A stretch of DNA of 64,000 bases from a virus (taxonomy: Duplodnaviria; Caudoviricetes), in IMG/VR virus record IMGVR_UViG_3300006139_000004, positions 32,001-96,000 of that record, one strand, 5' to 3'. Shown piece after piece: positions 13,692 through 14,740 of this stretch. The notes under the pieces were generated by a model. It saw nothing but the letters and a program-made list of their open reading frames with translations, was not told the DNA's origin and searched no databases. Position numbers and translations under genes: made by a program. How positions within the stretch are numbered: the first letter of the stretch is position 1; every line of letters starts with the position of its first letter.

Positions 13692-14330
13692 ATGACTACT
13701 GAGAAGATGACTGTTCACAAGGCTCTTGCTGAACTGAAGGTGCTGGATGATCGTATTCTTGCCGCCATTGGTGCTTGCAATCTTGTTACTACTAAGAAGA
13801 ACAATCAGGATAAGGTACGTGGCAAGACCGTTGCAGAGTTCACCGCCGATGCCAAGTCTGCTTACGATAAGGCAACCGACCTTATTAAGCGGCGCAATGC
13901 CATTAAAGATGCTGTGAATGTGTCTAATGCTAACACTACTGTCAAGATCGGTGATCAGGAGTATACTGTGGTTCAGGCTATTGACAAGAAGAATCATGGT
14001 ATGGATTTCTTCAAGAGTTTGCGTGACACTATGGTAGAGCAGCTTGCCAAAGCAAAAACCGATCTTGAGCGCAATAACGATAGCCTCCAGCAGAAGGCAG
14101 AGCAGTTTGTAACTGGCCTGATGGGTAATAAGGATGCCAAGACTAATGGAGATGAGTTTGATGCCTCTGTTCGGACTTACATTAAGTCAAACTCTATGGA
14201 GTTGATTGATCCTGTTGGACTTGAGAAGCGGATCGAGGAACTGGACAGTATGATTACGGCGTTCATGACCGAGATTGATGCTGCCCTGTCCGTCAGTAAT
14301 GCTCTGACCACCATCGAGATTACTTACTAA
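13692..14330 (+). CDS. helical/coiled-coil phage protein (recalled similarity to DIP1984/DUF6847-like proteins)
   Basis: MTVHKALAELKVLDDRI ... EIDAALSVSNALTTIEI; strong RBS; family assignment from memory only. Confidence 0.55.
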   Translation: MTTEKMTVHKALAELKVLDDRILAAIGACNLVTTKKNNQDKVRGKTVAEFTADAKSAYDKATDLIKRRNAIKDAVNVSNANTTVKIGDQEYTVVQAIDKKNHGMDFFKSLRDTMVEQLAKAKTDLERNNDSLQQKAEQFVTGLMGNKDAKTNGDEFDASVRTYIKSNSMELIDPVGLEKRIEELDSMITAFMTEIDAALSVSNALTTIEITY

Positions 14331-14341
14331 AGCATATCTCT

Positions 14342-14740
14342 CTTCGCTGCATGGCGAAAACTATAAACCATGACACGCCTGAGTTTTTGGGAAAAGAGTT
14401 CTGAGGTGTAAATTAATAAAAACTCTACCCACCTTCTGAAATTACGGTTATCGTAATTTTTAATACATAATCAAATTGGAATATGATTATTATATAAAAA
14501 TTATTAATTCTATCAAGTGGGAATTGCATTATGACGGTTCGCCACAGAATAGAACTTAAAAGATGACTGTAAAGTTCAAGGCTGAAAGTTGAAAGCTGAA
14601 GGCTCAATGCTAAAAGTTTAGACTTATCAAAGGTGAAAGGTTAGGCAACAAAGTTAAAAGGTAGTCAAAATCCTTGTAAATGGTTTTAGGAATTGTCATG
14701 CTTGTCCTTTAGTGATCCACAAGGCAGCTATGTAGCGAGG
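14342..14740 (+). ncRNA. ~400-nt structured ncRNA candidate with a heptamer-repeat loop
   Basis: 14-bp closing helix 14342-14355/14727-14740 with only G-U deviations; further helices; no + strand ORF. Confidence 0.75.
14571..14663 (+). repeat. degenerate 7-nt tandem repeat, consensus AAAG(T/C/G)TN, ~12-13 units
   Basis: aaagttc aaggctg aaagttg aaagctg aaggctc aatgcta aaagttt agactta tc aaaggtg aaaggtt aggcaac aaagtta aaaggta. Confidence 0.85.

Follow-up and report, generated by a model that had tools for sequence, protein, structure and literature searches.

A phage gene and the knotted, heptamer-bearing RNA behind it as probable partners in an undescribed protein-RNA particle

Why should a protein-coding gene of a phage be followed by some 400 nucleotides (nt) that fold back upon themselves and display the same 7-nt unit a dozen times? 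The question is raised by a locus in a 64,000-nt stretch of DNA (hereafter the window, meaning the whole stretch analysed: positions 32,001 to 96,000 of the virus record IMGVR_UViG_3300006139_000004), in which a gene for a helical protein of 212 amino acids (aa), at 13692..14330 on the + strand, is followed by a region that an initial annotation had taken to be an RNA acting together with that protein. The source is a mouse-gut Clostridia phage with a complete virus record of 133,491 base pairs (bp) carrying direct terminal repeats, and the same phage (100% identity) turned up in a scan of prokaryote genomes, on a scaffold of 'Clostridiaceae bacterium strain 9'. The locus lies within a run of + strand genes containing tRNAs and RNA-repair genes; the stop codon of the gene occupies 14328-14330, and the helix that closes the RNA begins 11 nt further on. 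The analyses reported here indicate that the gene and the RNA go together across very diverse phages and that the pair is probably an undescribed protein-RNA particle.

The region behaves as a structured RNA of the + strand, as had been proposed. Its + strand folds with a minimum free energy of -130.5 kcal/mol and a z of -6.7 (0 of 100 dinucleotide shuffles were as good), against a z of -3.5 for the - strand. The closing helix P1 (14342..14355 pairing with 14727..14740, + strand) is indeed a 14-bp helix with exactly three G.U pairs, and among 27 full-length RNAs from related loci (alignment A2) all 13 of its aligned pairs vary on both sides, with 95% paired. At one P1 position 19 of 26 RNAs have G.U and five have G-C, and this conserved G.U therefore identifies the + strand as the one that forms the RNA. 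The second long-range helix that had been proposed, 14369-14374/14695-14700, is likewise present, covaries and can be extended to 7 bp; this helix, P2 (14369..14375 with 14694-14700, + strand), was evaluated locally, since MAFFT misaligns it, and forms in 25 of 26 RNAs in eleven distinct compensatory versions (cognate strands pair at -6.4 kcal/mol, non-cognate strands at -3.5). In a local H-type pseudoknot (14375..14430, + strand), one of the two stems originally assigned is better placed elsewhere. Its first stem, S1 (14375-14380/14404-14409), has 6 pairs that all vary on both sides and is 90% paired; the loop pairing 14381-14388/14418-14425, behind which lies only the complementarity of a U-run with an A-run, is a less well supported second stem than S2 (14389-14400/14421-14430), with which it shares 14421-14425. 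S2, annotated in Rfam as the hairpin of the motif RAGATH-27, covaries among relatives and pairs at -7.7 kcal/mol between cognate strands and at -2.8 between non-cognate ones.

Downstream of S2 comes a variable region of local hairpins (14431..14563, + strand), whose length among relatives lies anywhere between a few dozen and several hundred nt. The RNA ends in a 3' domain (14668..14727, + strand) that begins with an invariant AAAUCC and closes with GGCAG (GGCUG in most relatives). Within it, on the same strand, are the helix P3' (14672-76/14720-24; 99.5% paired), its extension (14681-83/14717-19; 89%) and the P4' hairpin (14689-91/14705-07; 74%), all three with changes on both sides. The loop of P4' holds the 3' strand of P2 (14694-14700), and because P2 crosses P3' and P4' the fold contains a long-range pseudoknot. 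In alignment A2 the tested structure, consisting of P1 (13 bp), S1 (6), P3' (5) and the 3-bp extension, had 94.3% of its cells paired, compared with 68.1% for shuffled partners and 35-50% for partners slid by 1-3 columns; 25 of the 27 pairs vary on both sides, and the covariation of 0.675 (vs 0.227) was reached by 0 of 500 shuffles. For P3', the extension and P4', tested on 44 RNAs (alignment A3), the corresponding values were 90.1% paired vs 67.6% shuffled and a covariation of 0.566 vs 0.168, again matched by 0 of 500 shuffles. Judged from these alignments, the helices are kept by selection at the RNA level, and DNA-level roles such as iterons or pac sites are rejected because the helices covary with G.U on one strand only.

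Between the variable region and the 3' domain lies the heptamer tract (14568..14667, + strand). The initial annotation had counted about 12 heptamers, a number that a column profile of the 44 RNAs refines to 12 clearly phased units arranged as 7 + 5: block 1, with its invariant A at 14571, 14578, 14585, 14592, 14599, 14606 and 14613, is separated by a spacer from block 2, where after a 16-nt step the A recurs at 14629, 14636, 14643, 14650 and 14657. An invariant or nearly invariant A thus stands every 7 nt, preceded two bases earlier by a conserved U and followed by a second A, which gives a unit of the form U-N-A-A-r-g-n; the strongest unit in the tract is AAAGUUUA, at 14613-14620. The periodicity was also detected by Tandem Repeats Finder (periods 7/14/21 at 14571-14618) and by autocorrelation, which at lags 7, 14 and 21 amounts to ~0.5 against ~0.2 at other lags over all 27 RNAs. 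The 44 RNAs come from very diverse phages; in 43 of them the tract and 3' domain together span 171-195 nt, and from this constant length it follows that the number of units is fixed, unlike that of a freely varying sponge. A reading of the tract as coding sequence was dropped, there being stops in all three + frames, and so was a reading as 2 codons plus 1 nt, a mere curiosity. The 7-bp stem said to close the repeat loop (14564-14570/14661-14667) exists in the window, with two G.U pairs, but is weakly supported in relatives, where its cognate and non-cognate strands barely differ (-2.7 vs -2.0 kcal/mol). With an A every 7 nt, AAAUCC, P3', P4' and closure by P1, the window RNA belongs to the heptamer family; a covariance model of the tract and 3' domain (R1) scores 135.1 bits on the window at 14565-14743, the window sequence being in the R1 seed, and 98.9-164.7 bits on non-seed loci such as L005, L188 and L190.

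How closely is this RNA tied to the gene before it? Starting from the gene, R1 matched once, on the same strand and 3' of the gene, in 97 of 100 loci, and the three misses were cut off at or inside the gene, which leaves the RNA present in 97 of 97 evaluable loci. The DNA 3' of the gene is conserved in all uncut relatives on viral contigs, most of all over the repeat tract. The initial annotation had pointed to the downstream DNA of homologues as the place to look and to the adjacent protein as the obvious partner; a structured region and a 7-nt periodicity do co-occur there in every evaluable locus, and the protein is the only conserved partner, no conserved gene having been found 3' of the RNA among the loci compared. 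In most loci the RNA begins 8-30 nt past the stop codon. In one clade gene and RNA are separated by a small open reading frame (ORF); in Bacillus phage KLEB27-3 three inserted small ORFs intervene, and the RNA lies 1.5 kb 3' of the gene. Whole-genome searches recovered a single RNA copy per genome. In T5, where the gene corresponds to T5.085, the ~440 nt unannotated gap that follows it holds a homologous RNA (locus L050, 3649-4004). In the T5 record (NC_005859) the gene occupies 43505-44143 and the RNA roughly 43140-43495, each of them on the minus strand.

The same association emerged in the opposite direction, when viral contigs were searched with two DNA patterns built solely on the RNA. 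The first pattern was loose, 61 of its 80 loci being chance matches recognizable by their missing periodicity; among its 19 true matches, the gene was present in 16 of the 17 with enough upstream DNA. The second gave 60 matches, of which 52 had the gene, six had too little DNA and two, identical to each other, lacked it (52 of 54 evaluable). All three exceptions are remnants that lost most of the gene and the 5' domain of the RNA together. One (L122) has suffered a deletion that begins near codon 6 of the gene and ends within the variable region of the RNA; in the identical pair (L234 767-2170 and L259) the stretch between about codon 10 and the first heptamers has given way to an HNH homing-endonuclease gene. 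Neither an intact RNA without the gene nor an intact gene without the RNA was found among the loci examined in both search directions. In the identical pair of remnants, an integrase gene follows the RNA remnant. Two further searches returned little: an exact 22-nt junction pattern had no match in viral contigs, and a nucleotide search of GenBank phages gave only a chance 34-nt match.

The protein matches PHROG 1491 over its full length (E 6.9e-55; residues 3-210 on profile positions 2-209 of 211), and by this profile it is a member of that family. The family label, 'tail fiber protein', is unsupported here, the gene being placed among early, tRNA and replication genes. No sequence match was found for the protein in Pfam, NCBIfam or PDB. 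Its relatives are widespread: tblastn identified them in 740 GenBank phage records, which include T5 and its relatives and Vibrio, Pseudomonas, Erwinia jumbo, Aeromonas, Lactococcus, Bacillus and Clostridium phages; a protein-led scan of viral contigs yielded 47 loci at 42-66% identity, and a scan with one genome per prokaryote species added 45 further loci in Clostridia, in many Sporosarcina, and on contigs of metagenome-assembled genomes (MAGs) labelled Acholeplasmataceae, Izemoplasmatales, Bacteroidales and Saccharibacteria. The hosts of the pair span Proteobacteria to Bacillota, plus MAG contigs labelled Mollicutes-like and Saccharibacteria. Because of this wide range, a lineage-specific host RNA-binding protein is disfavoured as partner of the tract, and the range points to either a task internal to the phage or a universal host target, for example the translation or tRNA machinery.

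An AlphaFold2 model of the protein built from 19 sequences (predicted local distance difference test, pLDDT, 85.7) consists of a helical bundle and a small sheet contributed by N- and C-terminal strands and a hairpin. The initial annotation had suggested predicting the oligomer, and two copies are predicted to form a symmetric homodimer with a large interface, at an interaction prediction score from aligned errors (ipSAE) of 0.60 (0.60-0.62 in three runs) against 0.00 for the best control, with at least 87% of contacts shared between runs and a partner pLDDT of at least 86; this mark is reached by 20 of 30 proteins solved as same-chain pairs and by 1 of 23 solved as single chains, counts that are only approximate for this protein since a custom alignment was used. 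A motif ending in SNAxT, together with its strand, is duplicated within the chain (residues 74-86 and 198-210, 8 of 13 identical). Among members at 27-51% identity, the invariant residues are those of an N-terminal AL..K segment and of the two SNAxT copies, and these most conserved motifs lie mostly off the predicted dimer interface, which makes them natural candidates, on the model, for a ligand site.

A resemblance of the protein to DIP1984/DUF6847 had also been put forward. At the level of the fold it is weakly supported, the top match in both structural comparisons being 3KDQ, the DIP1984 protein of Corynebacterium diphtheriae (Pfam DUF6847, of unknown function). Foldseek gave E 0.013 and TM 0.41/0.54, and VIA gave a Z of 11.1 (rmsd, root-mean-square deviation, 6.0 over 150 of 152 residues; next row 8.0), a value within the range below ~13 that helical proteins reach without kinship. 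At the level of sequence no match was found: neither the protein nor 19 relatives matched the DUF6847 profile (PF20935) in Pfam or NCBIfam even at E 10, and a profile search of PDB sequences does not recover 3KDQ. In the Atlas, the nearest named cluster lay at 0.87, with DUF6847 in 15% of cluster members. A true DUF6847 gene (199 bits), in a Sporosarcina genome (G001) where the pair is also present, has no heptamer RNA behind it in this one case. What follows that gene (locus L288, 1924-2190) are ~250 gene-free nt with a T-arm-like GGUUCGAGUCC element and a terminator, in which there are no heptamers and no Rfam match and the fold z is -1.9.

If the protein binds the units of the tract, a copy of the best of them in its own leader is what would be expected, for a target copied in a protein's own leader is a classical sign of an autoregulating RNA-binding protein. 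The leader of the gene (13658..13683, + strand) has three in-phase U-N-A units, with U at 13658, 13665 and 13672, followed by the ribosome-binding site, and directly 5' of that site, at 13667-13674, it carries the same AAAGUUUA. Of the 75 unique leaders of this gene, 30 have the corresponding motif AAAG[AU]UUA between -15 and -37, among them leaders of members as distant as those of an Erwinia jumbo phage and a Saccharibacteria-labelled contig. In the same loci the motif is found in 0.5% of random 66-nt windows and in none of ~420 unique leaders of other genes with a ribosome-binding site. This leader copy of the strongest unit suggests autoregulation by the same binder. The layout recalls ribosomal proteins and T4 gp32, which are autoregulated by target mimicry, their main RNA target being copied in their own leader: in both cases the motif stands beside the ribosome-binding site, although here it is missing in some clades and the repression is putative.

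Is the RNA already known? At gathering thresholds, Rfam recognizes only tRNAs in the whole window. The best match of a permissive scan was RAGATH-27 (RF03100) at 14343-14430, with 31 bits and E 0.045 against a cut-off of 76.1; the same motif passes in three relatives (L015, 93.7 bits; L017, 97.4; L044, 89.6), in each case at the 5' end of an RNA that aligns with the window RNA over its full length. By these scores and alignments, RAGATH-27 is the first ~86 nt, or 5' quarter, of the heptamer RNA family, and the window copy is a divergent homologue below threshold rather than a scored member. The two share the 5' strand of P1, the GAAAAC junction (14356-14361), the 5' strand of P2 and the S2 hairpin; the single-stranded junction as a whole (GAAAAC ... 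AAAC, 14356..14368, + strand) is the most conserved part of RAGATH-27, and its G-A-A columns are nearly invariant. The Rfam model, in contrast, lacks the closing helix, the long-range pseudoknot, the heptamer tract, the 3' domain and the partner gene, and consists of one hairpin and 46 'unpaired' conserved positions, which look unpaired because the partners of P1 and P2 lie ~350 nt downstream. RAGATH-27 stems from the survey by Weinberg et al. 2017 (PMC5737381), as an orphan candidate motif. The initial annotation had allowed for a match to a characterized Rfam family of unrelated function; what the RNA resembles is an uncharacterized one, over its 5' quarter only. No description of the full-length RNA, its heptamer tract, the gene that accompanies it, its copy in T5 or the leader motif was found in the literature searched; only the 5' quarter had been catalogued, as an orphan motif.

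The surroundings of the pair are rich in tRNA genes. In the window, a tRNA-like element upstream of the gene (13586..13647, + strand; Rfam tRNA 48.3 bits, not called by ARAGORN) ends 44 nt before it and has normal D and T arms and no usable anticodon arm; a genuine tRNA stands at the corresponding place in many relatives, and the element may serve as a processing signal at which a transcript of gene and RNA is given its 5' end. A similar tRNA-like element precedes the L122 remnant. Most loci outside Sporosarcina have same-strand tRNA genes, often with one ending ~35 nt before the gene and another beginning 3-13 nt after P1, whereas the Sporosarcina loci have no tRNA nearby. In locus L198 (2252-2418) two complete tRNA genes (Asn and Ser) lie inside the variable region of the RNA, and the copy in Erwinia phage Simmy50 (L055, ~2260-2330) has a tRNA-like sequence in that region. 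Because tRNA genes sit inside it, the variable region need not stay continuous, and after tRNA processing the RNA would consist of two pieces joined by P1 and P2. The layout is compatible with a tRNA-mRNA-RNA transcript processed by tRNA maturation enzymes; tRNA context alone does not establish a tRNA-related function.

What, then, do the two partners do? We assign a probability of roughly 0.55 to the reading in which a single phage ribonucleoprotein is made up of the protein and the ~400-nt RNA, with the tract coated by the protein and feedback exerted through the leader. A compact, doubly pseudoknotted core (P1, P2, S1/S2 and P3'/P4') would hold both ends of a ~100-nt single-stranded tract, which would display its 12 phased 7-nt units, with the core U-N-A-A, as 7 + 5. 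Copies of the protein, a predicted dimer with duplicated SNAxT, would bind these units in register, binding probably being nucleated at the best unit, AAAGUUUA; once the RNA was saturated, free protein would bind the leader copy beside its own ribosome-binding site and shut off its own translation. Binding of the RNA by the protein, its stoichiometry and the autoregulation are what we infer. Known proteins offer a possible parallel, by analogy of mechanism only and with no membership claimed. TRAP is an 11-mer that binds GAG/UAG triplets, and HutP is a hexamer whose UAG sites recur every 7 nt in two blocks, each of its faces taking one block; both read evenly spaced short units in single-stranded RNA, with one unit for each protein site, and HutP shares the 7-nt period and the two-block layout. 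They are, however, attenuation regulators acting in 5' leaders, where the repeats control a terminator, while the tract is central in a closed, knotted, stand-alone RNA 3' of the gene, and they are unrelated to the helical protein, predicted here as a dimer. More tentatively, the pair could be a new kind of fixed-stoichiometry ribonucleoprotein, combining a 12-site RNA ruler, a dimer array and self-limited synthesis, whose target in the host would be a universal machine, with translation or tRNA handling as the likeliest candidates, and which has been kept from enterobacterial T5-like phages to phages of Clostridia, Bacilli, Mollicutes-like hosts and Saccharibacteria.

Several points weigh against the ribonucleoprotein reading. 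The protein is acidic to neutral in composition and no known RNA-binding domain was detected in it, and the oligomer prediction covered the dimer only. The strict linkage could stem from co-transcription and a shared function without contact. The leader motif is missing from whole clades, such as the Sporosarcina loci, and from several isolate phages; its counts overstate the number of events, related sequences being non-independent; and leaders fit their own tract no better than foreign ones (9.87 vs 9.67 matches), on which ground lineage-specific matching of leader and tract was dropped.

In the main rival explanation, the units would be recognized by something universal in the host (the ribosome, a translation factor, tRNAs or an RNase), with the RNA as a decoy, sponge or mimic and the protein as a helper in the pathway, a chaperone or an enzyme, instead of a coat. 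Such a role would suit the wide host range, the same-strand tRNA clusters at most loci outside Sporosarcina and the RNA-repair genes that adjoin the pair in the window, and U-N-A-A-R has the form of anticodon-loop positions 33-37 with an NAA anticodon. That last likeness is numerology, however, and as the units have no flanking stems both an anticodon-loop and a T-loop likeness count as a passing remark; the Sporosarcina loci have no tRNA nearby, and neither the presence of the leader copy before the ribosome-binding site of this gene only, nor the fact that gene and RNA are never apart, would be explained. We consider this rather unlikely. It is improbable that the RNA acts alone, as an ornate or self-assembling RNA or an unrecognized ribozyme in which the tract is structural or multimerizing and the gene merely co-transcribed. 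Its complex conserved fold, with two pseudoknots and invariant junction nucleotides, would fit this idea, as would a phage context near tRNAs like that reported for GOLLD and ROOL, large, ornate phage or prophage RNAs of unknown function beside tRNA genes (PMC5737381) that assemble as RNA-only complexes (PMC12286853). Neither GOLLD nor ROOL, however, comes with an obligate partner gene or a heptamer tract, and Rfam gave no match to a ribozyme, GOLLD or ROOL even at E 10 (for the last two, in 14250-15100 at E up to 10 and in the whole window at gathering scores). Self-pairing is, moreover, impossible for a purine-rich tract in which one base in every 7 nt is invariant, and the strict linkage and the leader motif would go unexplained.

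The short distance of 8-30 nt between stop codon and RNA in most loci, which leaves no room for a promoter of its own, would also be expected of a cis-acting element in the 3' untranslated region that stabilizes or regulates the mRNA of the upstream gene. This is decidedly improbable: an ORF separates gene and RNA in one clade and three do so in Bacillus phage KLEB27-3, processing of the tRNA genes within the variable region would split the RNA, and a knotted fold of 300-480 nt with 12 phased units far exceeds what a 3' stabilizer needs. Finally, a repeat-bearing RNA adjoining a small protein gene brings to mind, as it did in the initial annotation, a toxin-antitoxin-like pair in which the RNA neutralizes a toxic protein. 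In type III (ToxIN-like) systems, tandem RNA repeats of ~34-36 nt lie upstream of a gene for an endoribonuclease of the ToxN/AbiQ fold. Here the units are of 7 nt, the RNA is downstream rather than upstream behind a terminator, and the protein is an all-helical predicted dimer without a ToxN-like or significant defence-family match (the best PADLOC match, at E 0.001 and 15.6 bits, is to an unrelated long protein); the pair is, furthermore, a core feature of lytic phages such as T5. We regard a toxin-antitoxin function as highly improbable.

Other features lie close to the pair. Just 3' of the RNA is a long hairpin (14753..14785, + strand; stem 14753-14766/14769-14783), similar to one found in close relatives, which may be the 3' boundary of the RNA; its 3' arm (hairpin 14753-14783) can alternatively pair with 14995-15008, closing the next RNA, and the two pairings are mutually exclusive. 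A single ORF of 730 aa at 16224-18416 encodes a one-protein RNA-repair enzyme in which a polynucleotide kinase (AAA_33) is joined to a metallophosphatase and a T4 Rnl1-type RNA ligase. At 10389-10481, beside a tRNA-Ser (10295-10385), ARAGORN calls a tRNA with an abnormal 2-base 'anticodon'. The tRNA regions around the pair are dense in uncharacterized structured RNAs: related phages have further orphan Rfam motifs 1-2.5 kb 5' of the partner gene, namely RAGATH-36 (133-152 bits) and drum (72 bits), in L025 (1789-1917), L033 (1403-1559) and L018 (527-637), and in T5 an annotated 719-nt 'RNAX, stable RNA with unknown functions' (L050 5578-6296; 40848-41566 of the T5 record) adjoins a tRNA-Arg ~1.6 kb 3' of the heptamer RNA.

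Few non-structural modules of large tailed phages are shared as widely as this pair, which is also common in prophages of gut Clostridia; in T5, a model phage for 70 years, its RNA lies in an unannotated gap. If the ribonucleoprotein reading is true, the pair would represent a new class of phage ribonucleoprotein and a natural RNA scaffold on which the number of phased sites for protein is fixed, an orphan Rfam motif would be explained, and a widespread 'tail fiber' misannotation would be corrected. With the pair carried in T5 and E. coli, the key predictions are open to standard genetics and biochemistry.

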